This document shows positions 4,353-64,000 of a DNA stretch of 64,000 nt, one piece after another. Location: positions 205,639 to 269,638 of the forward strand of contig JAQTUX010000001.1 in NCBI GenBank assembly GCA_028707125.1. Direction: 5' to 3'. The stretch's first letter is position 1. Each line of letters opens with the position of its first letter. A model generated the notes under the pieces. The model worked only from the letters and a program-made list of their open reading frames with translations. It did no database searches and was not told the origin of the DNA. Source of the DNA: Candidatus Omnitrophota bacterium. GTDB lineage: Bacteria; Omnitrophota; Gorgyraeia; Gygaellales; JAQTUX01. The translations under genes and the position numbers were made by a program.

Positions 4353-5027
4353 ATGGAGCTTATTGCCTCTTTATTTGAGCCGGGGATTTTCCTGCTGATC
4401 GCGGGAGGCCTGCTTGGGCTGTCGGGATTTGTCGTGTTTATGATCATACGCGAGAGGTCCATGCAGAGGATAGAGATAGAGTCCCAACAGGACCATCTTA
4501 AGGAATTGGAGATCGCCATTGAAGAGGAAACGCAGCGCAAGACCAAAGACATCTCGGCAAAACTTGAGTCCCTGGAGAATGAGGTCCGGGAAAAGGCGGC
4601 GTTTAAGCTCAAGGCCGAGGAGCTGCAGGCAGAGCTTGATAAGTCGCAAGGGGAGATGGCAAAACTCGAAGCGGCCCTTAAAGAGAAGGCGGCATCCCCG
4701 GATAAGGCAGCCGGCAAAACAGCCTTACAGGGAGAATTAGAAAAGGAAAGAGATACGCTTAAGAAAGAACTCGCCGGAGCCAGGGAAGAGGTGAGGCAGG
4801 CAAGGCAGGACCTTGCCAATGCCAAGGAGATGTACGAGGATCTGAAACTGCAGTTTGAAGACCTTAAAGAAAAAGCGCCGCAGGCGGAAGAAAAGGCGCC
4901 CGGCGAGGAAAAACCCCGCGTGGTAAGCCCGGAGACCTCTTCAAAGATCCTGGAAGCCCTCAGGGAACTTAAACAGTCGGAACAGAAGAAACCCCCGGAA
5001 GAGAAAAATACCGAAGAAAATAAATGA
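4353..5027 (+). CDS. Membrane-anchored coiled-coil protein, function unknown
   Basis: N-terminal transmembrane helix (IFLLIAGGLLGLSGFVVFMII). The rest is E/K/L-rich with heptad-like periodicity. The antisense S-rich ORF 4310..5131 is a low-complexity artefact. Confidence 0.45.
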   Translation: MELIASLFEPGIFLLIAGGLLGLSGFVVFMIIRERSMQRIEIESQQDHLKELEIAIEEETQRKTKDISAKLESLENEVREKAAFKLKAEELQAELDKSQGEMAKLEAALKEKAASPDKAAGKTALQGELEKERDTLKKELAGAREEVRQARQDLANAKEMYEDLKLQFEDLKEKAPQAEEKAPGEEKPRVVSPETSSKILEALRELKQSEQKKPPEEKNTEENK

Positions 5028-5170
5028 CTAATGACGAAATCCGAATGACGAATGAATGACAAATGACCAATGACTAAATGACCAAACAGAAATATATTTG
5101 GACATTGGACATTTAAGCATTGGACATTCATTCGACATTCGTCATTGGGTAATTCGACATTAAGATTTAG
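5028..5170. repeat. Palindromic intergenic repeat element, copy 1 (AATGAC/GTCATT and CCAAT/ATTGG word family)
   Basis: tgacgaatgaatgacaaatgaccaatgac...ttggacattggacatt...cattcgacattcgtcattgg. The left and right arms are approximately reverse-complementary. It fills the whole gap between two + strand genes. Confidence 0.6.
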
Positions 5171-28446: not shown

Positions 28447-28578
28447 AAGCGGATATTAGGTGATTTGGTGATCAGGGTCTGGGGATTAGGATATAAGGAG
28501 ATTGGGGACAAATACCTAATATCCCAATCTCCCAATATCCAGACCCCAATACCCTAATTACCCAATACCCGCATTAAG
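28447..28578. repeat. Palindromic intergenic repeat element, copy 2 (CCCAAT/ATTGGG-rich subfamily)
   Basis: ggtgatcagggtctggggattaggatataaggagattgggga...tcccaatctcccaatatccagaccccaatagcctaattacccaat. The arms are approximately reverse-complementary. Confidence 0.55.
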
Positions 28579-28588
28579 CGTGTTTAGC

Positions 28589-42964: not shown

Positions 42965-42975
42965 GGGGGGCAGAG

Positions 42976-44970
42976 ATGTTTAAGTTAAAGACCGCCTTTT
43001 TTCTTATGGGATTGTTGAGTTGCCTGTTTTCTCCGGCGATCGCGCGGGAAGAAGGGCTTCCTCCGGAAGAACAACCGGTTATTGACGAGCGTTTCCTGGA
43101 GGAGATGCCTCCTGAGGAATGGATGAAACAGCCGGAACCGGAAGAGGGGATGTTACCTGAGACAGAGCCGCTGTTCTCTCCGCCCTCCGCCTCGCCTCAA
43201 GTTCCTGAGGACGGCCGGCAGGAGGGCAAGATATCCCTTGATATAAAGGGCATGAATATCCTTGATGTGCTTAAATTGATCTCCCAGCGTTCAGGGATGA
43301 ATATCGTGGCAGGCCGCAATGTGTCGGGCCGCGTTACGATGTTCATCAGGGATGTTGAGCCGATAGACGCGCTGGAGGTGATCCTGGCGGCAAACGGGCT
43401 TGCCTACGAGAAGAAGGGCGGCATCATCAATATCATGTCAGCGCGGGATTACGAGCTTGCCCACGGAGACAAGTTTGATGATAAAAAGGAGTTTACCACG
43501 ATCAAATTACAATATGCCCAGGCAGCCACCCTGAGCAAGGCCTTGACCACGGTAAAAAGCGCCCTGGGCAAGGTGGTTGTGGATGAAAGCAGCAATACCC
43601 TGATAATCCTGGATATGCCGGAAAAGATAAAGCAGATGAAACAGATAATAAAAGACGCGGACAAGCCGATAGTCACAAAGGTATTTAACCTGCAGTACGG
43701 AACAGCTGAAGACATGAAGGCCGCATTACAGGAAAAGGTGACAAAGAATATCGGCACGCTGACCATTGACGCGCGCACGAACAAGCTGGCGATCAGGGAT
43801 TATCCGGAGAAGATAAATGAACTGACGGAAGTCATCCAGCAGTTTGACGAGAAGCCAAAACAGGTTCTCATCGAGGCAAGAATCATAAAGATTGACTTAG
43901 ACGATGAATTCAAGTTCGGTATTGATTGGGACTACTGGTTGGAAAAGTATTTCAGGGTTACTCAGTCATTTAAGCCAACCGCTAGCAAGGGTACCGCCAC
44001 GGTATTTACTTTCGGGCCAAGTACAATCAATGCAAAAGAAGAATATCGGGGAATAATGAATATGATAAGTTATTTTGGTAAGACAGAGACCCTATCCACT
44101 CCCCGCATAATAGTGCTGAATAATCAAGAGGCAAAAGTTTTACTCGGTAATAAAGAATCATATATTGAGAGCACCACGTCGCAGTCAGGCACTGGTACGC
44201 AGGTAACGGCACAGGAAATTAAATTTATAGAAGGCGGAGTTAAATTGTCTGTAACTCCAACCATAAATGACGAGGGTTATATTACGATGAAGATAAAACC
44301 CGAAGTAAGCACAGCAGGACTTACGCCCATTACTGTCAGCGGTCAAACTACGCAGGTGCCCACGTTTAATACCTCAGAAGCGGAGAGTACGGTAATGGTG
44401 AAAGACGGCGCTACCATACTTATCGCGGGTTTGATTAAAAACGTAGATACGAAGAGCCGTAATAAAATTCCTCTTATGGGAGATGTCCCGCTTATTGGAA
44501 ACTTGTTCAGGCAGAACAACAATCTGGTGCAGAAGAATGAACTGGTTATTTTCCTCACGCCGACAATTGTAAGCGGTAGTAAGGTTGTTGAGTATAAAGG
44601 GGAAGCTGAAACACCGAGATTAGAAGATATGCAGAGAGACGCGGCTGATGATCCGATGATCAAAAAGGCGGCGCTGCCCTCGGAGGGCTTCAGGAATTTC
44701 CTGGAATATTCCGATTTTGTCTCAAGAAAGATAAGCCAGACAGCGAAGGAGAACGCGGGCCAGACCTCGGAGTCGGGCAGGGTCACGGTTTCTTTTATAT
44801 TGCTGTCCACCGGAGAGATCCAGGATAAGCCGCGGGTCGTATCGTCTACGAATGAGCTGTTGAACAACCTTGCTCTTAAGAACGTAATGGAGTCGGCGCC
44901 TTTTCCGCCGTTTTACAGGCTTTCTGAGAAAAATATGGAGCGGTTCAGGATAGCGATATCGTATAATTAA
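42976..44970 (+). CDS. gspD: Secretin (GspD/PilQ family)
   Basis: Signal peptide, secretin N domains (RDVEPIDALEVILAANGLAYEKKGGIINI) and the C-terminal secretin domain (LSTPRIIVLNNQEAKV...IPLMGDVPLIGNLFRQNNNLVQKNELVIFLTPTIV). Confidence 0.85.
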   Translation: MFKLKTAFFLMGLLSCLFSPAIAREEGLPPEEQPVIDERFLEEMPPEEWMKQPEPEEGMLPETEPLFSPPSASPQVPEDGRQEGKISLDIKGMNILDVLKLISQRSGMNIVAGRNVSGRVTMFIRDVEPIDALEVILAANGLAYEKKGGIINIMSARDYELAHGDKFDDKKEFTTIKLQYAQAATLSKALTTVKSALGKVVVDESSNTLIILDMPEKIKQMKQIIKDADKPIVTKVFNLQYGTAEDMKAALQEKVTKNIGTLTIDARTNKLAIRDYPEKINELTEVIQQFDEKPKQVLIEARIIKIDLDDEFKFGIDWDYWLEKYFRVTQSFKPTASKGTATVFTFGPSTINAKEEYRGIMNMISYFGKTETLSTPRIIVLNNQEAKVLLGNKESYIESTTSQSGTGTQVTAQEIKFIEGGVKLSVTPTINDEGYITMKIKPEVSTAGLTPITVSGQTTQVPTFNTSEAESTVMVKDGATILIAGLIKNVDTKSRNKIPLMGDVPLIGNLFRQNNNLVQKNELVIFLTPTIVSGSKVVEYKGEAETPRLEDMQRDAADDPMIKKAALPSEGFRNFLEYSDFVSRKISQTAKENAGQTSESGRVTVSFILLSTGEIQDKPRVVSSTNELLNNLALKNVMESAPFPPFYRLSEKNMERFRIAISYN

Positions 44971-45100
44971 ATGACAAATGACGAGTAAATTTCCAATGAC
45001 CAATTACCAATGTCAAATAAATTCCCAATTACCCAATGTCCAATTGGGAATTGTTAATTGGTCATTTATTGGGATTTGGTCATTGGCGAATTGGGAATTG
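44971..45100. repeat. Palindromic intergenic repeat element, copy 3
   Basis: atgacaaatgacgag...ccaatgaccaattaccaatgtc...cccaattacccaatgtccaattgggaattg...ttggtcatttattgggatttggtcattgg. It is built from the same words and has internally reverse-complementary arms. Confidence 0.55.
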
Positions 45101-45102
45101 AC

Positions 45103-45729
45103 ATGCTGAGAACTATCAGAGTAGTGTATGAGGACGCTCATCTATTGGTCGTGGAAAAGCCGGCGGGGATGCTGACTGTGGCAACGGTCAAGAATGAACG
45201 CGGGACGCTGGTCAATATTTTAAGGGACGAGGGCTACAGGGTGTATCCCTGCCACCGGCTGGACAGGGATACTTCGGGCTTGATCATGTTCGCCAAAGAC
45301 AAAAATACGCTGGATAAGATGCGGCAGCAGTTCCGGGAGCACAACGTGAGAAAGGCCTACAAGGCAATAGTGCAGGGCTCCCTGCAGAGAAAAGGCGGCA
45401 CGATAAGTTACGATATCATTGAAAAGGGCGTAAAAAAACCCGCCCGCACCGACTATGTGGTGCTTGAATCCAATCCCTTGTTCACGCTGGCAGAGGTGCG
45501 CCCCTTGACAGGCAGGACAAATCAGATAAGGATACACTTCAAACAGATAGGCCATCCGCTGGTAGGCGAGAGAAAATTTTTTCTGGCAAAGAGATCCGGA
45601 GTTAAATTCAGGAGGGCCGCCTTGCATGCCGAACGCCTGGATTTCAGGCATCCTTACACCGGAGAAAAGATACGGCTGAGAAGCGCGCTGCCTAAAGACA
45701 TGGAAAACTTCTTGAGAGGAACAAAATGA
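45103..45729 (+). CDS. RluA-family pseudouridine synthase
   Basis: HRLDRDTSGLIMFAK catalytic-Asp motif. The start is taken at the ATG at 45103, downstream of the repeat. Confidence 0.8.
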   Translation: MLRTIRVVYEDAHLLVVEKPAGMLTVATVKNERGTLVNILRDEGYRVYPCHRLDRDTSGLIMFAKDKNTLDKMRQQFREHNVRKAYKAIVQGSLQRKGGTISYDIIEKGVKKPARTDYVVLESNPLFTLAEVRPLTGRTNQIRIHFKQIGHPLVGERKFFLAKRSGVKFRRAALHAERLDFRHPYTGEKIRLRSALPKDMENFLRGTK

Positions 45730-50706: not shown

Positions 50707-52194
50707 ATGCGGAATATCAAAAGGGTCCTGGAGGGTTTTTCTTTGCGCCCCAGAGAGGTAGCCGGCGTAGACCTTGATGCCCATAAGATAATTGTCTGCG
50801 AGGTAGAAAAGAGGGGCCAGGAATTAACGCTTAAACATGTTTACATAAAGGAATTCCCCCAGGCCGGCGCCGCGGCGGATAATCTGCGGGGATTCCTCAA
50901 AGAGAATAAATTCGCTGAAGCCAAATACAGCTGCGTGGGGGCGATAAGCGCGGAGGAGTCATTCTTCAAGGGCTTCGCCACCAAAACCAATATCTTCAAA
51001 GACAAGGGCAACATCCCCTCATTTCTTTCCCGCCAGCCCCTGCCCGTTAACCTCAATGACTGTTACTGGGATTATCTGCTTACGGGAAAGAACCTTAATC
51101 TTGTAGCCGCGAGGAAAGAGATCGTTGACGCGCAGTTTAACGCCTTCAAGGAAGCCGGCGTGCAGTGCGCCTTTATCACGGCCGTGCCCTTCGCCCTGTA
51201 TAACGTCTTTACCTTTAACTACCCCGACAAGAAGAATTTCTGCATCCTGCACGTCAGATGGCAGTGCAGCAACCTGTGTATCTTTGAAGACGGCAGGTTC
51301 TGGATCCATACCATTTCAATAGGAAAGGATAAGCTCGCGGCAGGCGGCAGGATCGCGGAGGATGTGATCAGCGAGTTCGCGCAGGAGATAAAGCGGCTGC
51401 TTAATTCCAACTATCTCCAGATGGGTTCCTCGCACAAGCCGCTTGAGGAGATATTCCTTTCCGGAGAGCCCATCGCCGAAGACCTTCAGCCGTTGAGTTC
51501 GTCTTTAGGGATCAACGTGGCCTATCTTGATCCGCTGAAGAAGATCTCCCGCGCTGTTTCCGTTGATAAGCCGTCGCAGCTTTCCTTAAGCATCGGTTTA
51601 TGCGCGTCTTTCCTCAGCCCTTCCGCCTTCAGGTTGAACCTGTTGAAGGAAAAGCAGCGTTCCCTGGACGATACCAGGCATTTTGATACCGCCAGGAAGG
51701 CGTTCAGCGCCTTTATGCTTGCCTTGCTGGCGTTATTGGTCTTTTTGAATTTCAGGATGGGCAAGGCCGCGGGCCTGAAGGATAAGGAACTGGAGCGGTA
51801 CAAGTTCATATCGGACAAGGTCGTGCCCGGCTATAAAACACTCCTGGAGGAAGAGAAGTTCGTAAGCGAAAGATTGCAGTATCTGGAAACCCGGGCTAAA
51901 CTGCACAGCCTCTGGCTCAAGATGCTGCGGGATATATCGGTAAGCAAGGCAGACGATATGCGCGTTACTCTTTTAGACGCGCGCAACATTGACGGCCTGC
52001 TGGTCGTTATGCTGGGGGGCAGGACCGCCGACTACAGCGATATAAACGATTTCCTCAGCAGCCTGAGGCAAAATGAGTACGTTTCGGGGGTTAAGATAGT
52101 TTCTTCCGCTCAGGGCAGCGGCAAAGAAAGCGGCGTTGAATTCAAGGTCCGCCTTGACATAGGGCTTGAGAAAGGCGCCGCCGCTCAAGAATAA
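50707..52194 (+). CDS. PilM-PilN-like fused pilus assembly protein
   Basis: An N-terminal actin-like region, a central transmembrane helix (AFSAFMLALLALLVFLNF) and a periplasmic C-terminal domain. The architecture parallels 39269..40648. Confidence 0.4.
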   Translation: MRNIKRVLEGFSLRPREVAGVDLDAHKIIVCEVEKRGQELTLKHVYIKEFPQAGAAADNLRGFLKENKFAEAKYSCVGAISAEESFFKGFATKTNIFKDKGNIPSFLSRQPLPVNLNDCYWDYLLTGKNLNLVAARKEIVDAQFNAFKEAGVQCAFITAVPFALYNVFTFNYPDKKNFCILHVRWQCSNLCIFEDGRFWIHTISIGKDKLAAGGRIAEDVISEFAQEIKRLLNSNYLQMGSSHKPLEEIFLSGEPIAEDLQPLSSSLGINVAYLDPLKKISRAVSVDKPSQLSLSIGLCASFLSPSAFRLNLLKEKQRSLDDTRHFDTARKAFSAFMLALLALLVFLNFRMGKAAGLKDKELERYKFISDKVVPGYKTLLEEEKFVSERLQYLETRAKLHSLWLKMLRDISVSKADDMRVTLLDARNIDGLLVVMLGGRTADYSDINDFLSSLRQNEYVSGVKIVSSAQGSGKESGVEFKVRLDIGLEKGAAAQE

Positions 52195-52197
52195 TAT

Positions 52198-53328
52198 ATG
52201 GCGATACATTCAGATCTGAAAGAGGCGTCCCGGAGATGGGCGCGGTTCTTTAAGGAAGGCGTTAAAGACGAAAGGATCAAAAAGCATCTTGCCTTCAGCA
52301 TGCTCCTGATCTTCCTGGCAATATTTTTGATTTTACGCTTGTTTTTTTTATCGTATAAGATTAAAATGATAGCAGAGGACAAGGCGGCGGTAGCCGCTTC
52401 TATCTCCAAGGATTACCGTGACATAGACGAAGCGGCGCTGGCGGATATGCAGAAAAAAACAGGCCTGATGTGGCAGCGCCTTTTGGGGCTGACGGAAATG
52501 TTTGATCCGGCCCAGGAAGGCCGCAAAGAAGGATATGAGGCAAGCTTGTATTTTGTGGAACAGTTACAAAGCATAGAGAAGTCGCTTAAGCTTAAGGCGG
52601 AGAATAAAAAACTTCTTTTCCAGGGGCTTGGCTTCAACGAAGACCTGCCTTCCGAAAAGGATTCTGTATTTTACCTCAAACAGATGGACGCGTTGAGGTC
52701 GGCTGTAGAGCTTGGCCTTGACTCCAATATAAGTTTCGGCCCGGTAATGCCTCAGGGCATAGACCAGAAGGATGAAAGTTTGGGTTTTTTGCGGCTTCTG
52801 GCAAGGGCGGAATTTACGGCAGCGCCTTCGGACCTGGTAGAGTATATAAATGAGATCAGAGATACGGCGCCTCTATTGGTCATAACCTCGCTGAAGGCAG
52901 AGGAGAAGGACGGCCGGATGCAGGCCTCTATGCTGTTTGAGCGGCTGCACTGCGGTCAGGATTGGCGGGACAGGAAACTGGAGAAGCCGCTTTCCAGGGC
53001 GGAGGCCGTAGAGAAAGCCGACGATTACCTTAAGATATTGAGGGGGGTTAACCCCTTTTTCCAGGACCAGAAAAAAGAAGAGCCGGCAGCGCCGGCAGGC
53101 GCCGCGGGCGGCGCGGAGTTAAAAAAGGAGAGGCTGATTTTCAAGGGTTCGGCGGTTTTCCGGGACCGCCCCGTGGCAGTCATAGAGGATACCTTAAGCA
53201 AGGAAACATTTTTTATAGCGGAAGGCCAGTCCATAGCCACATTCAAATTGCTCAGTTTTTCCAGCGACAGCGCGACACTTACCGCTATAGACAGCGGCAA
53301 GGAGATCGTGCTGCAGAGAGGCAAATAA
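52198..53328 (+). CDS. PilO-PilP-like fused pilus assembly protein
   Basis: An N-terminal transmembrane helix, a coiled coil and a C-terminal PilP-like beta segment (RPVAVIEDTLSKETFFIAEGQSI...TLTAIDSGKEIVLQ). Confidence 0.35.
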   Translation: MAIHSDLKEASRRWARFFKEGVKDERIKKHLAFSMLLIFLAIFLILRLFFLSYKIKMIAEDKAAVAASISKDYRDIDEAALADMQKKTGLMWQRLLGLTEMFDPAQEGRKEGYEASLYFVEQLQSIEKSLKLKAENKKLLFQGLGFNEDLPSEKDSVFYLKQMDALRSAVELGLDSNISFGPVMPQGIDQKDESLGFLRLLARAEFTAAPSDLVEYINEIRDTAPLLVITSLKAEEKDGRMQASMLFERLHCGQDWRDRKLEKPLSRAEAVEKADDYLKILRGVNPFFQDQKKEEPAAPAGAAGGAELKKERLIFKGSAVFRDRPVAVIEDTLSKETFFIAEGQSIATFKLLSFSSDSATLTAIDSGKEIVLQRGK

Positions 53329-56300
53329 TGGGTTTCAGGCGCATATCGATACTTGTATTATTCTGGCTCTGCTTATTCGGAGCGCTTAATTGCCGGGGCA
53401 TCTATGCCGGGGGCGACAAAGAGGCATTGGCCGGCTATAAACAGGCAAAAAGGTTGATAGCCGGAAAGCATTACCAGGAGGCGTTGACCCTTCTTGATGA
53501 TCTGCTGAAACGTTTTCCTCAAAGCGCGCATATACGCCAGCTGAAGGATTCCACTATAGAGCGGCTTGCCGTTGCCGAGGAAAAGGCGGAATACCGCAGG
53601 CGCCTGCTTGAGCAGAGGCAGCGGGAAAAGCAGCGCGTCGCGGAGAAGCCGGCCCGGGCATCAAAGGCGTCAGAGCAAAACGCTGAGGAATTTACCGGGC
53701 AGAAGAAACAGACAAAGCAGCAGATCGCGGAAGACAGGCGCAGGAGGAAAGAAGAGGTCCTCAGAGAAAGGGCGCTTGTAAATGAAGAGCAGGCCGCCAG
53801 AAAGAAGGATCTGTCAGAGCAGAAGAGCCGGGAAAAAGAAGAGCGGATTCTGCAGGCGCGCCGCGAGAAAGAGGAGAAGAGGGCGGATGCCCTGGCGAAA
53901 AAAGAGCAGGCGCGCATGAAAAATGAGCGCCGCAGGGATGCCCGGCTTGAGGAAGAAAATCGCAGGAAAATGATAGAGGCGCGCGAACAGGAGGCAAGGC
54001 AGCGGCGGGAGGCCGCTGAAGCAGGATCGCGCCCGGCTCCGGAGAAAAAGAGCGCGCAGCCCCAGGAGGCCGAAGGGCAGGCGCCGGCCCGGAGCGCTAT
54101 AAGCGAAAGCCCTGAGGTTCCCAGCAAGAAGTTGGAGATCATCAAACAGGATTTTTCAGATTACCGGCAGACAGCGCGTTTTATAGAAGAGGAAGAAAGA
54201 AAGGCGTATAAGGAAAAGTTATTAAGGGAGCGGGAGGAACTGAGAAAAAAACTTGAGTTGGAAAAAAAGCGGCTTGAGGAAAGAAGGGCGAAAGACAGCC
54301 GCTCCGCAGAGCAGGGCGCGGCTTCAAAGCCGGCGGAAAAGAAGCAGGAGGCGAAGAGGCCGGAAAAAGAAAATCCCGGAAATAACAGGGCCGCCCTGCG
54401 CAAGGCGATGATAGAAAAGAAACGGCTCCTGATGCTGGAGGCGCAGCTTCGCCGCCAGGATAAGCTTGAGGAGCGGAAGAAAAAGATAGAAGAGAAAAAG
54501 AGGCGCATAGAGGAGCGTTACGGCTCTTCCCTTGAGAAAAAGGGAAAATTGCGGGAGATCAAAAAATCAGTTGCCGCGGGGAAGCTGGAAGAGGCAGAGG
54601 CCCTGCTTAATGAGTTGACCACCAAATACCCCGAGGATATACGGCTTTTAAAATATGCCGATAAACTGGACAGGATCATAGAAAAGCGCCGGCAGAGAAA
54701 GGGGCCAAACAAGCCCGGCGGCGCCGCGCGGAAAGCGGCTATAGCGGTCGCCAAGGAGATGATAACAGCTAATAAGCAAGAGGCGGCCGAGCCTGAACCC
54801 GAAGCCAGCCCGGAGTTAAAGGAAAAGAAGATAAAAGAAGAGATCCTCCAGCAGAAGCTCAAAGAGCGGGCCGCCAGGCGCCGGCAGAAAAAGGAAAGAA
54901 AGCCGTCCGTCCTGTCCGAGCGCAGGGAAAAGTCCCTTAAGAAGACGGCGGTGCTTAAGGAAAGAAACGCGATCTCCGGCCAGATCAGAAAATATATCGG
55001 TAGCGCCGACTTCAGCAAGGCGAAAGAGGCGCTGGATTCCTTCAGGTCAAAATTCCCCGAGGACACAAGGATCTCCTCGCTTGATGATCTGCTTAAGAAA
55101 AGGATCAGGGCTGCCGGGGAAAAAGACAAACGCCGCGACGCGGCCCTGGAGAGGCGTGAAGAGCTGGCAAGAAAAAAGAAAGAACACGCGCTCGCCCGCC
55201 AGGAAAAGATTGCCAGGGAAGAGAAAAACGTCATTGTCAGGGAACAGGTAGAATCAAAGAAGCAGGAGGCGCGGGAGAGCATAACCAGGCGCGGTAAGGA
55301 TAAGCAGCTCAAAAAGCACAAGGAAGACAGGGAGAAGATACGCAAGATCAACCAGCTTTATAAAGAGGCAAGGCAGTTATTCGCCAGGGAGATGTATGAA
55401 GAGGCGATAGAGAAATTTGAGAAGGTGGTCGAGCTTGAAGGCAACCCCAGGATATATTACACCCCGTCCGCCAGGAAATTTATTGATAAGGCAAAGGACT
55501 TGTTAAAAGAGCAGCATATGGAGAATATTTCCGCGGAGGCGGGCCTTATGGAAAAGGAGATGATCAATAAGGTAATTGAGAAAGGGATGCCGCCGTATAT
55601 TGAGCCGCAGAAAAAGATCGAAGAGATAGAGAGGGTCCCCCTGGTCAAGGTGCCGATTATCAGGCAGCGGCTGCAGAAGAGGGTCACGCTTGATTTTGAC
55701 AAGGTATCGCTGAAATCGGTGATGGATTTTCTTTCCGACGAAACGCAGGTGAATATAATGCTCTCAAAGAAGGCGCTGGAGCAGGACTTCAGCGTGACCG
55801 CGAAGCTGGACAAGATCAAGGCGGAGGAGGCGGTAAAATATATCCTCAAAGGGCTGGGCCTGAAGCACAGGGTAGACGACCAGATCGTCTGGATCGCCGT
55901 TGAGGAAGAGATCGACGACGAGAACCTTGAGACGAGGGTATACTCTTTCAACAAGGGCAGCGGCCTGTTCACCGAATTTACCACTACCACTGCCGGAGAG
56001 GTGGGGCTGGGAGGCACCTCCGAGATAACCAAGATAACCACGATAGAAGATGTGCTGAAAGAGGCAGTGCCCTGGCCCGCCGAGGCAAAACTTGTTTTTG
56101 ATAAGAGGACGGGCACCATAATCGCCACGAATACCCCTTCCAACCTGCAGAAAGTAGAGGACATACTTTATAATATAGACGTGGTCCCTTATCAGGTCCT
56201 CATCGAGGCGCGTTTCCTTGAGGTGACCATTAATGATATTGAAGAACTGGGCCTGGAGTGGACATTGACCGGGGACTTTCCTTCCAAGAAGGCGGGGGCG

Positions 56301-57026
56301 CTGAATTCATTCTCGCACGGGCTGGGCTCAGGCAGCGGGGCGGACTTCACGACCTTTTCCAGGTCATCGGAAGGGCTGAATATAACTTATAAGGGCGTGC
56401 TCACTTCCCCTCAATACCAGGCGGTCCTGCATATGCTGGAGGAGAATAAGAAGACCAAGACGCTTTCCGCCCCGCGCGTTACCACGCTCAATAACCAGTT
56501 GGCCACGATCAAGGTCGTGGATGAATGGATATATCCCACGCGTTATGAATTTCAGATCGTGCAGAACGACTCCAACGGAGACGGGGACTTTAACGACGCC
56601 GGCGAGACGCAATATAAGAATGTCCCTTCCGATTTTGTCAAGCGCGACATAGGCATACTTTTGAGGGTTGTGCCTTCCGTAGGCGAGGACAGGCAGACCA
56701 TCACCCTTTCGCTCATCCCGGAGGTAAGCGAGGCAGTGGCGGACTTCTTTACCTATACGGGCGGCGTGACCCTGCCTAAATTCACATCAAGGAATCTCTC
56801 TACCACCATAGTGGTCAAGAGCTCCGAGACCGTGGTCTTGGGCGGGCTGATCAAGGAATCCCGCACCAAAACAGAGACCAGGGTGCCCGTCTTAGGCGAT
56901 CTGCCTTTCATCGGCAGGGCGTTCAGAAAGAACTCAGACAGCATAGAGCGCAAGAACCTGCTTATTTTTGTTACGGCGAAGATCCTGAGCCCGGAAGGCG
57001 AAGAAGTACAGATCGTAAGTAAATAA
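53328..57026 (+). CDS. Giant secretin (PilQ/GspD family) with an N-terminal TPR-like region and a long, highly charged E/K/R-rich coiled-coil insertion
   Basis: Signal peptide, then a long E/K/R low-complexity helical region across residues about 90-690. A secretin N domain (LDFDKVSLKSVMDFLSDETQVNIML) and a C-terminal secretin domain (LSAPRVTTLNNQLATIKVVDEW...VPVLGDLPFIGRAFRKNSDSIERKNLLIFVTAKIL) follow. Confidence 0.8.
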   Translation: MGFRRISILVLFWLCLFGALNCRGIYAGGDKEALAGYKQAKRLIAGKHYQEALTLLDDLLKRFPQSAHIRQLKDSTIERLAVAEEKAEYRRRLLEQRQREKQRVAEKPARASKASEQNAEEFTGQKKQTKQQIAEDRRRRKEEVLRERALVNEEQAARKKDLSEQKSREKEERILQARREKEEKRADALAKKEQARMKNERRRDARLEEENRRKMIEAREQEARQRREAAEAGSRPAPEKKSAQPQEAEGQAPARSAISESPEVPSKKLEIIKQDFSDYRQTARFIEEEERKAYKEKLLREREELRKKLELEKKRLEERRAKDSRSAEQGAASKPAEKKQEAKRPEKENPGNNRAALRKAMIEKKRLLMLEAQLRRQDKLEERKKKIEEKKRRIEERYGSSLEKKGKLREIKKSVAAGKLEEAEALLNELTTKYPEDIRLLKYADKLDRIIEKRRQRKGPNKPGGAARKAAIAVAKEMITANKQEAAEPEPEASPELKEKKIKEEILQQKLKERAARRRQKKERKPSVLSERREKSLKKTAVLKERNAISGQIRKYIGSADFSKAKEALDSFRSKFPEDTRISSLDDLLKKRIRAAGEKDKRRDAALERREELARKKKEHALARQEKIAREEKNVIVREQVESKKQEARESITRRGKDKQLKKHKEDREKIRKINQLYKEARQLFAREMYEEAIEKFEKVVELEGNPRIYYTPSARKFIDKAKDLLKEQHMENISAEAGLMEKEMINKVIEKGMPPYIEPQKKIEEIERVPLVKVPIIRQRLQKRVTLDFDKVSLKSVMDFLSDETQVNIMLSKKALEQDFSVTAKLDKIKAEEAVKYILKGLGLKHRVDDQIVWIAVEEEIDDENLETRVYSFNKGSGLFTEFTTTTAGEVGLGGTSEITKITTIEDVLKEAVPWPAEAKLVFDKRTGTIIATNTPSNLQKVEDILYNIDVVPYQVLIEARFLEVTINDIEELGLEWTLTGDFPSKKAGALNSFSHGLGSGSGADFTTFSRSSEGLNITYKGVLTSPQYQAVLHMLEENKKTKTLSAPRVTTLNNQLATIKVVDEWIYPTRYEFQIVQNDSNGDGDFNDAGETQYKNVPSDFVKRDIGILLRVVPSVGEDRQTITLSLIPEVSEAVADFFTYTGGVTLPKFTSRNLSTTIVVKSSETVVLGGLIKESRTKTETRVPVLGDLPFIGRAFRKNSDSIERKNLLIFVTAKILSPEGEEVQIVSK

Positions 57027-57027: not shown

Positions 57028-58707
57028 ATGCCTCAGGAAAGACAGTCAGAGCGTTCAAGGCAGGCAACGCCGATAGAAGAGGCGCTGATAAAAGAGGGCA
57101 TAATCACGCCCGAGCAGCTTGAGACGCTGAAGGTGGAGCAGGAAAGGAGCAGCGTCTCCATAGTTGAGGCGGTGCGCCGGCTCAAGGTCATAGATGAAGA
57201 CGTCCTGCTTGATTTCCTGAGCAGAAAACTCAATATAAAAAGGCACAGTTTAAAAGGCTTCATCCCCTCTCCCGATATCCTCAATAAGGTCCCGCCGCAT
57301 TTTGCCAGAGGCAAAAAGATCATCCCCCTTTTTCAGGAAGGTAAAGAATTGGCCGTAGGCATGGCAGACCCGCTGGATTTCGCCAGCGTGGAGGAATTGC
57401 GGTTCGGTTCCGGGCTGTTTGTCAAGCCGTACCTGGTCAAAGAAGACGAGGTGCTGGAATTTTTATCTTCTTATTACCCTGAGTCGGAAGAAGACATTAA
57501 GGCGGCGCCGCGGCAGAAAGAAAAAGAAAGGGAAGACGTGGAAAAGCCGTCAATAGTCAGGAGCGTCAACCTCCTCATTTTGCAGGCGGTAAAGGCGGGC
57601 GCCTCGGATATACATATAGAGCCGCTGGAGGATTCTTTGAGGGTGCGTTTCAGGGTGGACGGCGTCCTGCATGAGGTCACGCCGCCGGAAAAATATTTAT
57701 ACAGCGCCATCGTCTCGCGCATCAAGATCATGTCCAACCTTGATATCGCCGAGAAAAGGATACCGCAGGACGGCAGGTTCCAGACGCAGGTGGGGGAGAG
57801 GTCTATTGACGTGCGCGTCTCAACCATCCCCATGATCTACGGCGAAAGCATAGTGCTGCGCCTGCTTGAGCAGACAAAGAAGGTGCTGACGCTGGAAGAG
57901 ATCGGCTTTTTAAAAGACGACTTAAGCGTATACAGGCGCCTGATACAGCAGACAGCGGGCGTAGTCCTGGTTACCGGCCCCACGGGGAGCGGAAAGACCA
58001 CGACCCTTTATGCCTCGCTTATGGAAATAAAGAGCGTGGAGAAGAATATTATCACAATAGAAGACCCTGTGGAGTATCATCTTGACTTTGCCCGCCAGAT
58101 ACAGATCAATTCCAAGGTAAACCTCACCTTTGCCTCGGGCCTGCGTTCAATATTGCGCCATGACCCGGATATAGTCATGGTGGGAGAGATCAGGGACCTG
58201 GAGACCGCGGAGATCGCCACGCAAGCGGCCCTCACCGGCCACCTCGTATTCTCAACCCTTCACACAAACGACGCGCCCTCCGCCATAACGCGGCTGGTGA
58301 ATATGGGGGTTGAGCCGTTTCTGGTCGCCTCCTGCGTTAAAGGCGTGGTCGCCCAGCGGCTTGTGAGGGTGTTGTGTACCTGCAAAAAGCAGAGAAAGAT
58401 AAAACTTTCCCTGCTTCACGGGCTGCTGCGGCTGGAGCAGCCGAAAGAGGACAAGGAGGTACCGGTCTTTGAGGCGGGCGGCTGCCAGAATTGCATGCAT
58501 ACCGGCTACAGGGGCAGGGTGGCGATATTTGAGATAATGGAGATGAACGACGATATAGGCGCCCTCACCGTTGAGAAGAAAAGTTCGGAGGATATAAAGC
58601 GGCTGGCTGTTTCGGGAGGGATGCACAGCTTACAGCATAACGGCCTGGACAGGATACTCGCGGGCGTGACCTCGCCCGAGGAAGCGGTGAGGGTTTTGGG
58701 AGCATAA
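57028..58707 (+). CDS. Type IV pilus / T2SS assembly ATPase, second copy (PilB/GspE family)
   Basis: GSPII_E_N-like N-terminus and Walker A GPTGSGKTTT. It shares the conserved nucleotide-binding-core motifs with 33423..35141. Confidence 0.9.
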   Translation: MPQERQSERSRQATPIEEALIKEGIITPEQLETLKVEQERSSVSIVEAVRRLKVIDEDVLLDFLSRKLNIKRHSLKGFIPSPDILNKVPPHFARGKKIIPLFQEGKELAVGMADPLDFASVEELRFGSGLFVKPYLVKEDEVLEFLSSYYPESEEDIKAAPRQKEKEREDVEKPSIVRSVNLLILQAVKAGASDIHIEPLEDSLRVRFRVDGVLHEVTPPEKYLYSAIVSRIKIMSNLDIAEKRIPQDGRFQTQVGERSIDVRVSTIPMIYGESIVLRLLEQTKKVLTLEEIGFLKDDLSVYRRLIQQTAGVVLVTGPTGSGKTTTLYASLMEIKSVEKNIITIEDPVEYHLDFARQIQINSKVNLTFASGLRSILRHDPDIVMVGEIRDLETAEIATQAALTGHLVFSTLHTNDAPSAITRLVNMGVEPFLVASCVKGVVAQRLVRVLCTCKKQRKIKLSLLHGLLRLEQPKEDKEVPVFEAGGCQNCMHTGYRGRVAIFEIMEMNDDIGALTVEKKSSEDIKRLAVSGGMHSLQHNGLDRILAGVTSPEEAVRVLGA

Positions 58708-58850
58708 ATACAATAAATGACCAATGGCCAAGCTCCAATGACGAATGAAATCACAATGACCCAAATCCCAAACAGGAAATATAAATTGGGTATTGGGATT
58801 TGGACATTCATTCGTCATTGTGATTTGGTAATTGTTACATTATTCTGTAA
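58708..58850 (+). repeat. Palindromic intergenic repeat element, copy 4 (forward orientation)
   Basis: aatgaccaatggccaagctccaatgacgaatgaaatcacaatgacccaaatcccaa...ttgggtattgggatttggacattcattcgtcattgtgatttgg. It is about 90% identical to the reverse complement of copy 5. Confidence 0.65.
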
Positions 58851-58868
58851 TTGGATATTGATTCCAAG

Positions 58869-59399
58869 ATGTCCGAACGAAAAAATGGTTTTACCTTAGT
58901 AGAAATACTTATATCATCGGTAATCCTGGTCAGCGTGATAGGCCTGGTGTTCGCCACATTGGTCACTACCTTTAATTCCTGGCGCAGGGCCGAGGAGGCC
59001 AGCATAAAACAGCAGCAGGTCAGGTTCCTGTTCTTCCGTATGAACCGAGAGCTTTCTTCCGCCGTGCGTAACGGCAAGTTCGCCGGTGACGGGAGCGCGT
59101 TCCATTTTATCACCGCCCTGATGCCCATGGCGGAAATAGGATACGAATACAACGGCGCGGACAAGACGCTGACAAGATCGTTTGAGAAAACCGCGGACCT
59201 TAATTTTGACACATTTGACAGAAAAGATCAGGTTATGTCCGGGCTTCAGGCATGGAGGGTTTCTTTTCTTGATTCAGGGGGGCAGTGGCAGGAACAGTGG
59301 CTTAAGGATGAGCTGCCGAGGGCGGTAAAGATCGCTTTTAAGATAGATGAAAAAACCCCTGAACAGGAAAACATAGTGCATATAGCTGTCGCGGAATGA
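58869..59399 (+). CDS. Prepilin-type N-terminal cleavage/methylation domain protein (pseudopilin/pilin-like)
   Basis: MSERKNGFTLVEILISSVILVSVIGLVFA. The start is taken at the ATG at 58869, because the track start 58851 is TTG. Confidence 0.55.
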   Translation: MSERKNGFTLVEILISSVILVSVIGLVFATLVTTFNSWRRAEEASIKQQQVRFLFFRMNRELSSAVRNGKFAGDGSAFHFITALMPMAEIGYEYNGADKTLTRSFEKTADLNFDTFDRKDQVMSGLQAWRVSFLDSGGQWQEQWLKDELPRAVKIAFKIDEKTPEQENIVHIAVAE

Positions 59400-59448
59400 A
59401 TAGAGAATAGTGTTGCATTGATGATGATATTTTGATATAAAATGAGAT

Positions 59449-60948
59449 ATGCATATGATTAAAGGGGGTCTTATAATCATAGGCATCCTGGCTGTTTCTC
59501 TGGGGCTCAGCCCGTTTGTTTTTTCCGCCTCATCCGGCAGTTCCATTTACGACGCCACCCTTATTTCTTTTTACGGCGGCGGTTCAAGTTCCGCCCTGTC
59601 TTCCACGAATTTTTCTTCCCCTTATTCTTTATTAGGCGAGACGCCTGCCGCTCCGGACACGCTATCCAGCACTGCCTTCAACACCTATGTCAGCGTGCTT
59701 AAGCTTATCGCGCCGGCTGAATCTTCAGACATCTATAAGATAGGCAACTTAATGGCAAAGACCGATACCCTGGGCCAGGGTATCACCGAGAGCGCTTGGC
59801 AGGCGGACAACAGCCCCTATTTTTACTGGTCAATATTGACCCAGCCGCCCGAGCTTGTTACCGGATTCAGTTTTTCCCTTGACTCTTCCCCCGACGATGA
59901 AGTCGATACCGCCAGCACGTTCTATCAATATCCCCAGGACGGTATCTCCGACGGTAAGCATATCTTTTATGTAAAGCCGTTCGGCGGAGACCTCTGGGGC
60001 GATGCCGTAAGCTTCAATATATGGGTAGATACCGCCCCGCCGGCAATTAATTCCAGCATGCCTCAGCCCGGAGCGGTCATCAAAGACAGCGCGGTTGAAG
60101 TATACTGCCATATCAGCGATGCCTCATCGGGGGTAAACAGCCTGAAGACCTCAATGTCCATAAACGGCTCTCAGGTTTCAGCCATATACGAAGAGGCCAC
60201 GGGTAAACTCAGCTTTAACGCCGGCGGCCTTCCTGAGGGCAGCAACACCGTCTTCATAAAGGCGGAGGATATAGCGGGCAACGACGCGAATAAAAGCTGG
60301 TCGTTCACCAAGGATACAGCGGCGCCCTTAGGCGCCGTGCTGATCAACGCGGGGGACGACACGGCTTATTCGCCTTACGTCATACTTGATCTGGCGGCTG
60401 AAGATGACACCACATCCGTAGTAAAGGTCTATATATCAAATGACGGAGTATTTGACGATGAATTTTCCCAGGCCCGTGAATACAGCAGCCAGATAAAGGG
60501 CTGGCTTCTGAAGGAGCCGGACAAGGACGGTTTAAAGACGGTTTATGTGATCTTTGAAGACGCGGCAGGCAACCGCTCCGAGGCATATTCGGCGAGCATA
60601 ACCTTACGCCTGCTTACCCCTGATACGCGCATAATCAGCGCCCCTCCCGGCATTACCCAGGAGACAGGCGCTGATTTTATATATGAGGCAAGCAAGCCCG
60701 GCTGCGTATTCAGCTTCCGTTTAGACGATGCGCAGTGGTCCGGCTGGGCGAGCGCTGCCCAGGCATCATTCAGCGGCCTGGCCGAAGGCAATCATTATTT
60801 TCTCGTAAAGAGCGCCTTTGACCTGGACAGCGACGGAGTGATCACCATAGACGAGGAGGACGCCACCCCGGCGCAGTGGGTCTGGGCCATCGGCGAGGCA
60901 GTCGCCCCCGCGGCAGGGGAAGAGACGCTGTTCTGGAAAAGACAGTAG
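59449..60948 (+). CDS. Secreted protein with bacterial Ig-like domains (adhesin-like)
   Basis: Signal peptide. The repeated beta-rich units with GNDANKSWSFTKDTAAP- and GNRSEAYSASITL-type motifs are typical of Big-like domains. Confidence 0.45.
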   Translation: MHMIKGGLIIIGILAVSLGLSPFVFSASSGSSIYDATLISFYGGGSSSALSSTNFSSPYSLLGETPAAPDTLSSTAFNTYVSVLKLIAPAESSDIYKIGNLMAKTDTLGQGITESAWQADNSPYFYWSILTQPPELVTGFSFSLDSSPDDEVDTASTFYQYPQDGISDGKHIFYVKPFGGDLWGDAVSFNIWVDTAPPAINSSMPQPGAVIKDSAVEVYCHISDASSGVNSLKTSMSINGSQVSAIYEEATGKLSFNAGGLPEGSNTVFIKAEDIAGNDANKSWSFTKDTAAPLGAVLINAGDDTAYSPYVILDLAAEDDTTSVVKVYISNDGVFDDEFSQAREYSSQIKGWLLKEPDKDGLKTVYVIFEDAAGNRSEAYSASITLRLLTPDTRIISAPPGITQETGADFIYEASKPGCVFSFRLDDAQWSGWASAAQASFSGLAEGNHYFLVKSAFDLDSDGVITIDEEDATPAQWVWAIGEAVAPAAGEETLFWKRQ

Positions 60949-60949
60949 A

Positions 60950-61090
60950 TAAATGATAATTCACAATTACCAAATCCCAATGACGAATGAATGTCCAAAT
61001 CCCAATACCCAATTTGTATTCTTTATTTGGGACTTGGGTCATTGTGATTTCATTCGTCATTGGAGCTTGGACATTGGTCATTATTAGCCA
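60950..61090 (-). repeat. Palindromic intergenic repeat element, copy 5 (inverted relative to copy 4)
   Basis: Its reverse complement aligns with copy 4 at about 90% identity over about 120 nt. The six-frame artefact ORFs 58717..58899(+) and 60842..61081(-) translate to near-identical peptides. Confidence 0.65.
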
Positions 61091-61152
61091 TTAATAATTT
61101 TATGATATCAATATTTAAACCCGCAATCATATCAATAATCCAGGAGGTTAAA

Positions 61153-64000
61153 ATGAACGCGAAGAGAATCGATCTATCTAAAGTATTTATCCTGTCCTTA
61201 TTATCCCTCTTGCTGAGTAGTATCTTCTGGAACTCCTCTTTTGCCGCGCCGCCGAGGGAGATGTACATTCAGGCAAAAGTTACTAATAAGCAAGGGGATG
61301 CCATCACCGGCTCTCACAGCGTTATCTTCCGCCTTTACAGCGCATCGAGCGGAGGCACTGCCATTTGGACAGAGACCCAGACCGTCACCGTCGGCACAGA
61401 CGGCATACTCGGCGCCTATCTGGGCTCATCCACAGCCCTGCCCACGACCCTTGATTTTGACTCAACCTATTATCTTTCCATTGAAGTTGATTCCGACGGC
61501 GAGATGTCGCCGCGCATAAAGCTTTCTGCCGCGCCTTACGGCCTGGGCGCCTATATGATAGGCGGTCTTGAGGCAACATCGTTCTTACGTTCCGACGCGG
61601 CCGATACAGCCGCGGGCAACATCACCTTCCAGAAGGCGGACCCGTCATTGATATTTGACGTAAGCACAGACGATGATACCGATTTCTGGTTAGGCGTGCA
61701 GGATGACGCGGGAGAGGATGACGACGACCTGTTCCAGATAGGCGGCGGCACCACGCCGGGCACAGGCCCGTTTCTGACGCTTGATACCTCCGGCAACCTC
61801 GGCATCGGCACTGTCGCGCCGACTTCAAAGCTCTACGTTGTCGGCGACATAACCGCCACCGGCTCGGTCAGCGCTGCCTCAGGCAGCGGCGGCTGGATTG
61901 ACGACGGGACCGTTGTGCGGCTGGCCGCTTCAACCGATACCGTAGGCATCGGCACGGCAACCCCGGGCTCAACGCTTGATGTGGAGGGCACGCTGCAATT
62001 GCAGTCAGGCGCATCCATCAGCGAATTTTCCACTGACGGCACGCTGGCAGATGATAGTGATACCGCTGTGCCTACGGAGAAGGCGGTAAAGACATACGTT
62101 GACACGGAAATCGGAGGCATCTCACAGGACAAGATCACGGAGGGCGATACCACAGTTGAGGTAGTTGATACGGAAGACGGCTACATCACATTAACCGAGG
62201 ATAATGATGAAAAAATGCGCATAACCGGCGGTCAGGTAGGCATCGGAACAACGGCTCCCGGCGCCTCGCTTGATGTCGTGGGCGGTTCTGTCCGTACGGA
62301 TAACCAGTTGATCTCTACTGTGGCAACAGGCACCGCTCCTTTGGCTGTTACCTCAACCACCGTTGTTACCAACCTTAACGCCGATACAGTAGACGGCTCC
62401 AGCGCGGCGGACTTTATGGCAGCCGGCACAGATACCTGGGTGGATACCACAGGCGATACGATGACCGGTCAGCTGATTATGTCGGGCGTGGCCTCTGACA
62501 TTACAACCGGCTCAAACGAACATCTGGCGTTAATGCCGGAGGGAACCGGCAAGGTGGGTATAGGCACCAGCTCTCCCGGAGCCATGCTTGAGGTAGCGGG
62601 CGACGTTCTTGTGGATACGACCGGCGCCGACGAGCTTGATTCCGTCACAACAAGCGATGTAACCACGTCTCTGGCAGTTGCCACAAACCCCGGCGGCACA
62701 GGGGACGTTGACGGCGTGATAAAACTGGGCAAGGATGACGGCGGCTGGCAGTCCATATGGTATGACGCCTCTTTACGCAGCAATCAGGGGCAGTTTGTGT
62801 TCAGCAGGCCGATCAAGGTCCAGGGCTCAAGCCCGGCGCTTATCACCTTTGACGACGGCAGCTCCACGCAGACGCTTACCTTTGATTCAACCGCCGATAA
62901 GACCTTGAGCTACAGCGACTCAATGAGCGTCAACGCCCTTGAGATACGCGCGGCGTCGCCTTCAGTGCTCAGTTTCGGCACCGGCTCAAACCTGGTTAAT
63001 CTTATCTATGACCCCGAGACCGACGGCATCCGTTTTTCGCGCGGCGTTTTTGACCACGATTTCCGTAACCGGATCAAGAACGGTTCATTTGAGGCGTTCA
63101 GCGCGTTAGAGGAGTTCCATAATTATGATCTAACGTATAGCACCGATGCCGCCGTATATAATACAACCGCCGGATACCAGGGCGGCTGGAATAATTTTGC
63201 CCCGGATGAATGGACATATGTTTCCGGCAAGGTATTCCAGCAGGCGCCGACATTTTTTGAGTCGGGTTTTACCGACGCCAACATTACCTCAACTACCTAC
63301 CAGCAGGATTTTGCCGAAGGCCGCAGTTCCGTGCGTTTAGCCTATGACAGCGGAGCGCCAGGCATTATCAGCCAGGTAATTTCCGGGCTTAAGCCCTCCA
63401 CCCTATACAGCGTAGGCGTGAAGATGCGTGTGGACACCGGCGGGTCTGCCGAGGTTGACATAGAAGGGGAAGATGCCTCAACCTCAACAACACTTTCCGC
63501 TAATCTCACTGCCGCGGCAACAGATGAGATGTCGGTTTCCAGCGTATCGGGATTTCCCGCTTACGGCATAGTCCTCATAGATTCAGAGCGCATCTCCTAC
63601 GCCGGCCTGGACGCGGATAATAACAAATTCCTGCGCCTGGCCCGCGCCGTAGAAAGCACCACAGCCGCGTCGCATAGCTCCGGCGCGACAGTAGGCATCG
63701 CCCCATTTAAGGTGTTGACCACTTCAACCGATACAACCTACGCCAAATTCAAGGGCCAGTTCTCAACCAGCGCCAGCGCGGGCGATGTCACAATTAAACT
63801 TAAGGCAACCGCGACCGACGGAACCGCCGCGTATTTTGACACGGTGCAGATCGTGGCAGGCGGCACCGTGCCGGAATACACCTCTAACACGCTGGTTGAT
63901 ACCGGAGACCAGACGCTTTACGGCAGCTTGCGCATCGGCCGCGCCTCCGACGAGAAGGGCGGCATCCTTTCGGTGGATAAGTTTGTGCGCGCCCGCGGCA
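61153..64000 (+). CDS. Very large secreted repeat protein (tail-fibre-like/adhesin-like), 5' part; the ORF runs past the window end
   Basis: AGGAGG RBS and a signal peptide. There is no stop codon in frame from 61153 to 64000, so at least 949 codons. Four spaced repeats of a G(I/V)GTxxPGxxL(D/E)VxG motif occur (LGIGTVAPTSKLYVVG, VGIGTATPGSTLDVEG, VGIGTTAPGASLDVVG, VGIGTSSPGAMLEVAG). Confidence 0.55.
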   Translation, partial: MNAKRIDLSKVFILSLLSLLLSSIFWNSSFAAPPREMYIQAKVTNKQGDAITGSHSVIFRLYSASSGGTAIWTETQTVTVGTDGILGAYLGSSTALPTTLDFDSTYYLSIEVDSDGEMSPRIKLSAAPYGLGAYMIGGLEATSFLRSDAADTAAGNITFQKADPSLIFDVSTDDDTDFWLGVQDDAGEDDDDLFQIGGGTTPGTGPFLTLDTSGNLGIGTVAPTSKLYVVGDITATGSVSAASGSGGWIDDGTVVRLAASTDTVGIGTATPGSTLDVEGTLQLQSGASISEFSTDGTLADDSDTAVPTEKAVKTYVDTEIGGISQDKITEGDTTVEVVDTEDGYITLTEDNDEKMRITGGQVGIGTTAPGASLDVVGGSVRTDNQLISTVATGTAPLAVTSTTVVTNLNADTVDGSSAADFMAAGTDTWVDTTGDTMTGQLIMSGVASDITTGSNEHLALMPEGTGKVGIGTSSPGAMLEVAGDVLVDTTGADELDSVTTSDVTTSLAVATNPGGTGDVDGVIKLGKDDGGWQSIWYDASLRSNQGQFVFSRPIKVQGSSPALITFDDGSSTQTLTFDSTADKTLSYSDSMSVNALEIRAASPSVLSFGTGSNLVNLIYDPETDGIRFSRGVFDHDFRNRIKNGSFEAFSALEEFHNYDLTYSTDAAVYNTTAGYQGGWNNFAPDEWTYVSGKVFQQAPTFFESGFTDANITSTTYQQDFAEGRSSVRLAYDSGAPGIISQVISGLKPSTLYSVGVKMRVDTGGSAEVDIEGEDASTSTTLSANLTAAATDEMSVSSVSGFPAYGIVLIDSERISYAGLDADNNKFLRLARAVESTTAASHSSGATVGIAPFKVLTTSTDTTYAKFKGQFSTSASAGDVTIKLKATATDGTAAYFDTVQIVAGGTVPEYTSNTLVDTGDQTLYGSLRIGRASDEKGGILSVDKFVRARG

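Follow-up and report, generated by a model that had tools for sequence, protein, structure and literature searches.

A stretch of 64,000 nucleotides (nt) from the genome of a Candidatus Omnitrophota bacterium (assembly GCA_028707125.1, contig JAQTUX010000001.1, positions 205,639 to 269,638 of the forward strand), referred to below as the window and numbered from its first base, contains two long inverted repeats, A and B, that enclose a gene for a GspJ-like pseudopilin and a gene for an immunoglobulin (Ig)-like protein. With a probability of roughly 0.72, A and B both belong to a dispersed family of palindromes composed of heptamer words, comparable to MITEs (miniature inverted-repeat transposable elements) and to the ERIC elements, and their inverted orientation is incidental. 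Members of the same word family lie elsewhere in the window and in many other genomes, elements are present or absent at orthologous sites of related genomes, the enclosed genes keep the ancestral order and strand, and the window encodes no recombinase. The outcome is deflationary, in that there is no evidence here for a new phase-variation switch or a mobile adhesin cassette in Omnitrophota.

The palindrome pair and its family

The inverted arms of the pair (58716-58835 and 60963-61082) are 120 nt each, are 93% complementary (112/120) and are separated by a spacer of 2127 nt, and the pair is the top-scoring inverted repeat of the whole window. Five of the eight mismatches between A and B fall in the central loop and three in the arms; once the loop is excluded the arms are approximately 97% alike, and the longest run of exact identity is 38 nt. 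A and B are each an imperfect palindrome by themselves, with their own arms 74-78% complementary, and both are predicted to form stable hairpins (-46.5 kcal/mol, z -4.7 for A; -48.9 kcal/mol, z -6.0 for B), a stability that was reached by none of 200 shuffled sequences in either case. Element A lies in the 161-nt gap between the GspE gene and the GspJ-like gene, its first base lying 1 nt past the GspE stop codon, and element B lies within the 204 nt that separate the Ig-like gene from the downstream gene, beginning 2 nt past the stop codon. The pair encloses exactly two genes, and the description given in an earlier note on this DNA, of inverted palindromic repeats of ~120 nt flanking exactly two genes, is accurate. 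The repeats are not a product of chance, since a 15-mer taken from the element occurs seven times in the window against 0.14 expected, and the hairpin pattern AATGACGAATG-N55-85-CATTCGTCATT, which A, B and a third element (C) satisfy, occurs three times against 0.00 expected.

Elements of the word family are ~130-145 nt long and AT-rich. Degenerate 7-nt words (GAATGAC, CCAATGAC, CCAATGA(C), CAAATCC and similar) follow one another in the 5' arm and the 3' arm is the complement of this series, so that an imperfect hairpin of ~45-50 bp can form from either strand. As a consequence of the mirror symmetry, both strands read as an AATGAC-type arm, a loop and a GTCATT-type arm. Among 123 cross-phylum elements, 59% of the word spacings are 7 nt and 16% are 14 nt, and 7 nt is also the modal spacing in the window copies. 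On either strand, most or all frames of the 5' halves contain stop codons. The order of the arms appears to be constrained, as the AATGAC-type (A) arm, which bears stop and start codons, comes before the T arm on both strands in all 12 unselected arrays, from ~1 Mb of flanking sequence. A description of the arms as chained mini-ORFs (open reading frames) encoding MTNDE and linked by ATGA was considered and rejected; it is true of pure GAATGAC runs, but the Omnitrophota copies read through in one frame (ORF 58717-58899). That ORF (+) is one of several spurious ORFs of 60-80 amino acids (aa) made by the repeats, the others being 60842-61081 (-) and 58630-58818 (-), with translations such as MTNGQAPMTNEITMTQIPN... 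and MTNVQAPMTNEITMTQVPN..., which genome pipelines are likely to annotate as hypothetical proteins.

Whole-window repeat finding and a word-density scan located three further elements, C, D and E (Table 1). In total, the 64 kb hold four elements of the word family and one related hairpin (E), and three of the five (C, D and E) are solitary. All five lie in short gaps between genes of the same strand, start at the upstream stop codon or a few nt past it, and fold significantly better than shuffled sequences. In C, the TGA stop of the upstream gene falls inside the first word and the hairpin has a predicted folding energy (dG, in kcal/mol) of -46.5 (z -9.2); the corresponding values for D are -40.9 and -3.1. 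In E the G/T-rich arm comes first, the reverse of the arm order in A to D, and the minus strand is the more stable (dG -67, z -7.4, against -55 and -6.8 on the plus strand). The G+C content is 0.33-0.35 for A to D and 0.44 for E, compared with 0.515 for the window.

Beyond the window, the hairpin pattern was found at more than 120 loci in species-representative genomes, a lower bound; among the 80 matches listed, counted from their titles, 39 are from Verrucomicrobiota, 29 from Planctomycetota and 12 from other phyla. The matches in public genomes are all palindromes built of words, each with its own word order. A 21-mer specific to A and B found 11 loci in a metagenome scan, set in different word arrangements, and no close copy of A or B. 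Long hairpin repeats of 7-nt words are very widespread in Verrucomicrobiota, Planctomycetota and Omnitrophota, with sporadic matches elsewhere. In the IMG/VR viral collection, 11 contigs (L138-L148) carry the pattern, one of them (L140) twice. The Rfam 15 covariance models gave no match at the gathering threshold for the window elements and 15 cross-phylum loci, the sub-threshold matches at the elements being to miRNA-precursor hairpins only; element A had no BLAST match among annotated plasmids and phages; and a literature search by motif string and vocabulary found no description of a heptamer-word repeat family. The family is apparently undescribed and modestly interesting. In other genomes, too, neighbouring copies can be nearly identical, in direct as well as in inverted orientation, which makes the configuration of A and B a typical one for the family.

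Presence and absence of an element at one orthologous site was seen in Prosthecobacter-like Verrucomicrobia, in the gap between the genes for a cysteine desulfurase and a thioesterase. This gap measures 203-215 nt in the query and its relatives at 98% and 90%, where the element is a discrete block of ~140 nt directly after the stop codon, and in the 85% and 82% relatives it is a C-rich spacer of 34-36 nt with no element. Where the site is filled, the element is inherited, with a conserved outer stem, a drifting interior and one 7-nt word gained or lost. The seed contig L055 (CAMAZK010000007.1) is labelled as an Akkermansia muciniphila metagenome-assembled genome (MAG), and its cysteine desulfurase is closest to Prosthecobacter-like homologues; the label is probably a binning error or a mislabel. 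Together with the closest available relative of the window (L002), described below, which lacks the elements, this site provides the behaviour expected of a MITE, namely a short non-coding element with inverted ends that occurs, or is missing, as one discrete block. To this extent the MITE-like insertions suggested by the earlier note agree with the data.

In the scheme that we propose, genomes would gain or lose elements of the family as discrete blocks, placed in short gaps and usually starting at or just past a stop codon. Here the two sizeable gaps in a conserved operon (secretin, GspE, GspJ-like, Ig-like, large protein) would have received one each, and for this reason they seem to bracket two genes. 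The inverted orientation would be incidental because an insertion can have either direction and the element itself shows near symmetry. The high similarity of A and B would reflect gene conversion between the neighbouring elements or a local copy made recently, and copying itself may proceed by MITE-like transposition in trans or by templated copying. An effect on expression, if there is any, would most likely come from the long hairpins pausing, processing or stabilising segments of a polycistronic transcript, as in ERIC, REP and Correia elements.

Several observations weigh against this reading. C and D share just ~60-80% identity with A and B, which are 93% identical to each other, and given this divergence the adjacency of A and B is not fully explained by random insertion. 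The family is combinatorial, with the same words in varying orders and without a fixed consensus, and such a word order is atypical for a transposon-derived MITE. No target-site duplication was recognised in the window or at the Prosthecobacter-like site, where boundaries are fuzzy, filled and empty sites have diverged and the comparison was partly by eye. Likewise, no conserved terminal signature was found at the elements and no partner transposase in the ~55 ORFs of the window, so that a MITE mechanism is putative. At the locus itself, a Logan contig (L001, SRR22315508) matches window 58791-60990 at 100% identity, the inner part of each repeat included, and ends inside both repeats, and the orientation of the segment in the MAG rests on short-read assembly. 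Finally, hairpins of an unrelated CCACC/GGTGG type occupy these two gaps in L002 (z -3.5 and -4.9; -0.2 for the gap between the GspJ-like and Ig-like genes), a placement that hints at a position-specific function over neutrality.

The conserved operon and the question of inversion

The genes of the operon are listed in Table 1. The product of the GspJ-like gene has a class III signal peptide, its prepilin leader being MSERKNG|FTLVE, and an N-methylation motif, as pseudopilins of type II secretion systems (T2SS) and type IV pili (T4P) do; its match to TIGR01711 gspJ (1.9e-10) is under the equivalog cut-off, and for this reason the protein is named GspJ-like. The Ig-like protein (NCBI PHR44_01355) has ~65 full-length orthologues with 37-64% identity, essentially all labelled Omnitrophota, and in Omnitrophota its gene always adjoins those for GspE and the GspJ-like protein. 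No relative of it with a solved structure was found. The secretin has an N-terminal extension of ~900 aa composed of TPR repeats and a coiled coil rich in Lys, Glu and Arg, which gives rise to a strong AT skew (0.30-0.48) at 53-56 kb, and the orthologous secretins of two relatives (L149 and L150) likewise have TPR. The large downstream protein has no Pfam match; at 61798-62601 a 48-nt coding repeat (VGIGT..P...L.V.G-like) recurs in its gene, in four or more diverged copies 144-318 nt apart, and a faint Peptidase_S74 match in a relative of it from L003 suggests a fibre-like protein.

Table 1. Repeat elements and operon genes in the window, with positions counted from its first base
Feature	Position	Strand	Description
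Element A	58708..58852		AT-rich quasi-palindrome of heptamer words, GC 0.34
Element B	60950..61092		Copy of A in opposite orientation (93%, 120 nt)
Element C	5019..5165		Solitary, same word family; between 224-aa ORF and PfkB kinase gene
Element D	44966..45103		Solitary, more divergent; between second secretin and pseudouridine synthase gene
Element E	28447..28579		Related long hairpin, CCCAAT/ATTGGG-type words; between bioA/bioD-like and mnmA-like genes
PilN-like and unassigned ORFs	50707-53328	same as secretin	Upstream of secretin
Secretin	53328..57026	+	Secretin 2.7e-38; precedes GspE in conserved secretin-first block
GspE/PilB-type ATPase	57028..58707	+	T2SSE 2.9e-133, MshEN; directly 5' of A
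GspJ-like minor pseudopilin, 176 aa	58869..59399	+	T2SSJ 7.2e-10, N_methyl 1.6e-4
Ig-like (Big_13) protein, 499 aa	59449..60948	+	Big_13 1e-9; N-terminal hydrophobic signal-like segment
Large downstream protein	61153..64000	+	Incomplete at window end; after B; syntenic in relatives

In L002 the genes for GspE, the GspJ-like protein, the Ig-like protein and the downstream protein are found in matching order and strand, with amino acid identities of 81%, 62%, 64% and 51-74% (the last at L002 3310-4792), and none of these heptamer-word elements is present in it. Four other relatives (L149-L152) have an operon of secretin, GspE, (TPR), GspJ-like, Ig-like and large protein, in which the gaps measure only 5-33 nt in L149. 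In more distant Omnitrophota (L003-L006) GspE, Ig-like, GspJ-like and GspF genes lie on one strand; the GspJ-like and Ig-like genes have thus changed places between these lineages and the others (the window, L002 and L149-L152), with the strand unchanged. Because order and strand are kept in relatives, the two genes are fixed members of a conserved secretion or pilus operon of Omnitrophota, in their ancestral orientation. The palindromes were either added to two operon gaps here or lost from the relatives. The operon of secretin, GspE, GspJ-like, Ig-like and large protein is a consistent feature of Omnitrophota and may deserve study in itself.

The earlier note had also raised the possibility that the cassette is invertible or excisable, and this suggestion was not supported. 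In a programmed phase-variation system, a site-specific invertase would flip the 2.1-kb segment with the pseudopilin and Ig-like genes and in this way turn the pilus or secretion module on or off. Such systems come to mind when surface-structure genes are flanked by inverted repeats, and the near-identity of the arms outside the loop is compatible with ongoing recombination between them; moreover, as the short-read contig breaks at both repeats, assembly alone leaves an alternative orientation possible. However, the repeats belong to a dispersed and mostly solitary family, with three solitary elements in the window and hundreds of loci in genomes of the Planctomycetes-Verrucomicrobia-Chlamydiae (PVC) group, and are not specific to a switch. 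At 120-145 nt they are also far above the ~10-30 bp of typical invertase sites, such as those of the fim, hin and Bacteroides systems, and the segment consists of two whole genes co-oriented with the operon, in place of a promoter or the alternative ends of a gene. In relatives that lack the repeats, the two genes have identical order and orientation. By Pfam, no domain of a tyrosine or serine recombinase, a Piv-type invertase or a transposase was detected in the ~55 ORFs of the 64 kb, in agreement with the earlier note, which saw no recombinase gene in the window, and the window has no tRNA genes that could mark an integration site. Overall, we regard a programmed switch as very improbable.

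A horizontally acquired, transposon-like or excisable unit made of the two genes and their flanking repeats is hardly credible. The discrete two-gene block with inverted terminal copies has the appearance of such a unit, but both genes have orthologues at the same operon position across Omnitrophota, L002 has the genes and not the repeats, the G+C content of the block (0.50-0.54) is unremarkable beside that of the window, and no transposase is encoded there. Synteny already contradicts this reading.

The break of the independent Logan contig in both repeats indicates that short-read (de Bruijn) graphs are interrupted by them, and one could ask whether the pair, or its orientation, arose by mis-assembly of the MAG. 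This explanation is extremely unlikely, given the complete identity of that contig with the window over 58791-60990 and an orientation that matches five syntenic relatives. The same synteny speaks for the assembled orientation being canonical. On general grounds of homologous recombination, a rare and unprogrammed RecA-dependent inversion would be physically possible across 120 nt with exact blocks of 38 nt. Such an inversion would leave both genes antisense to the operon and would not be a programmed switch.

Two practical points follow for genome analysis: heptamer-word repeats interrupt short-read assemblies, and inverted repeats of the A/B type should not be flagged as invertons without a check of their dispersal over the whole genome.

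Regarding the other features of the window, a c-di-GMP-I-GGC riboswitch was identified at 30642-30716 (+) (RF03167, 60.2 bits, E 1e-11), upstream of a 560-aa protein without Pfam match (30789-32471) that is followed by a PilZ protein (33039-33383). After the PilZ protein comes a second complete T2SS/T4P-like cluster (33423-44970), in the order GspE, GspF, GspG, pseudopilins, GspK, PilM, GspM, an AAA_22 ATPase, GspC and a secretin with a TonB_C tail. A protein of 1082 aa (45726-48974, +) has no Pfam match, and its score of 114 bits to the NCBIfam model of GH149 beta-1,3-glucan phosphorylase is far under the cut-off of 1150. A GH94-like protein is encoded at 686-3349 on the minus strand.

Hairpins as possible operon punctuation

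As an alternative, A and B may be cis-elements under selection that serve as bidirectional terminators or attenuators, as RNase III processing sites or as mRNA-stabilising hairpins, and they would make the GspJ-like and Ig-like pair a separately dosed sub-unit of the operon. The placement of structure is suggestive, with strong hairpins in the two outer gaps and an unstructured internal gap (z +1.1), and L002 repeats this arrangement with the unrelated hairpins mentioned above. The start of the elements at or just past stop codons, the stop codons carried by their 5' halves in most or all frames of both strands, and the order of A-arm before T-arm in the unselected arrays also agree with a function of this kind. 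Against it, the operon of L149 has no hairpins in its short gaps and that of L151 has its hairpin in another gap.

Regarding termination, the elements have neither a GC-rich stem with a U-tract nor a T-run after the stem, and a terminator scan of the window identified five sites against 6.5 expected, none of which matches the element hairpins on the coding strand. An intrinsic (Rho-independent) terminator was therefore rejected, on the basis of an element GC of 0.33-0.35, the missing U-tract and a scan at chance level. The antisense strand gives the more stable fold in 34 of 55 co-directional cases and in four of the five window elements. In the wider family, 56 elements lie in co-directional, 18 in divergent and 13 in convergent contexts, compared with a background of 345, 122 and 140, counts that rest on crude greedy-ORF gene calls; there is neither enrichment in convergent gaps nor depletion from divergent ones. 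The terminators or insulators proposed in the earlier note thus gain from the L002 hairpins, which stand in the same two gaps with none in the internal one, and lose by the composition of the stem and the missing U-tract, and further by the lack of a sense-strand folding advantage and of enrichment at gene 3' ends. Taken together, we consider punctuation of the operon by these hairpins unlikely. Should the repeats influence how transcripts are processed, this would be of consequence for operon expression in phyla that are poorly studied.

The hairpins of the other Omnitrophota form a separate dispersed family, CCCACC(T/G)(A/C)GCG...GGTGGG, seen in L002 (923-1009 and 3140-3280, the gaps between GspE and GspJ-like and downstream of Ig) and in L151 (3655-3739, the gap between secretin and GspE, z -8.4). 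As its sequence contains GTAG, this family may be REP-like.

A broader possibility is that the heptamer-word palindromes are not conventional MITEs and represent an undescribed class of intergenic elements centred on the PVC group, either symmetric insulators that combine a translation stop with a long hairpin or sequences that spread by an unknown, templated route. Under this proposal, which we hold to be doubtful, the constrained arm order would be a property of the class, and A and B would isolate the expression of the pseudopilin and Ig-like sub-unit of an Omnitrophota-specific secretion or pilus machine.

Comparison with known systems

Among systems in which inverted repeats flank surface-structure DNA, the inversion switches (fimS, hin/gin, Bacteroides invertons and pilin shufflons) share this arrangement with the window. 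They differ from A and B, which are long, dispersed, members of a mostly solitary family, without a recombinase in the window, and placed around two complete genes in ancestral orientation. Integron attC sites are likewise imperfect palindromes, of 55-140 nt, directly after cassette ORFs. This candidate was rejected, as no RYYYAAC/GTTRRRY core sites were seen by eye and no IntI is encoded in the window, the copies are inverted and not direct, and the genes belong to a conserved operon.

The TAACTGA heptamer arrays of Beggiatoaceae, Cyanobacteria and Bacteroidetes are intergenic direct repeats found just upstream of start codons (PMC4679880). Like the present family, these arrays consist of stop-codon-bearing 7-nt words, are intergenic, have a patchy distribution across phyla, and have no known mechanism of spread or function. 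In contrast, the words described here form one arm of a palindrome that is mirrored by its complement, and the elements start just past stop codons.

REP/BIME and REPIN-RAYT sequences are extragenic palindromes, often in nearby inverted pairs, for which mobilisation in trans has been proposed and an influence on termination and mRNA stability suggested (PMC3733652). The window elements resemble them as extragenic palindromes that include a nearby inverted pair. REPs are 20-40 nt long, with stems of 8-9 bp and a GTAG or CGTC tag, and are usually accompanied by a RAYT gene (PMC3733652). An assignment to REP/BIME (REPIN) was rejected, given the 130-145 nt of the elements, their ~45-50 paired positions and the absence of a conserved terminal tetranucleotide; no RAYT (IS200/IS605-type Y1 transposase) was found among the window ORFs.

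The Correia/NEMIS elements of Neisseria, which are MITEs, agree with the window elements in being non-coding intergenic insertions of ~100-150 nt by surface-structure genes, with inverted ends and with filled and empty sites, and both are likely to be co-transcribed and foldable into long hairpins. Unlike Correia/NEMIS, the window elements are palindromic and of low complexity throughout, without a unique core between terminal inverted repeats, and no conserved terminal inverted repeat, target-site duplication or parent insertion sequence (IS) was found for them.

The ERIC/IRU elements of Enterobacteriaceae and Yersinia are imperfect palindromes of ~127 nt. They have no sequence relationship to the elements described here, occur in other host phyla, and have a fixed consensus in contrast to the combinatorial 7-nt words. 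They nevertheless share with A to E the size class, the imperfect palindromy, the scattered solitary copies in short intergenic gaps within transcription units or between them, and presence or absence between related genomes.

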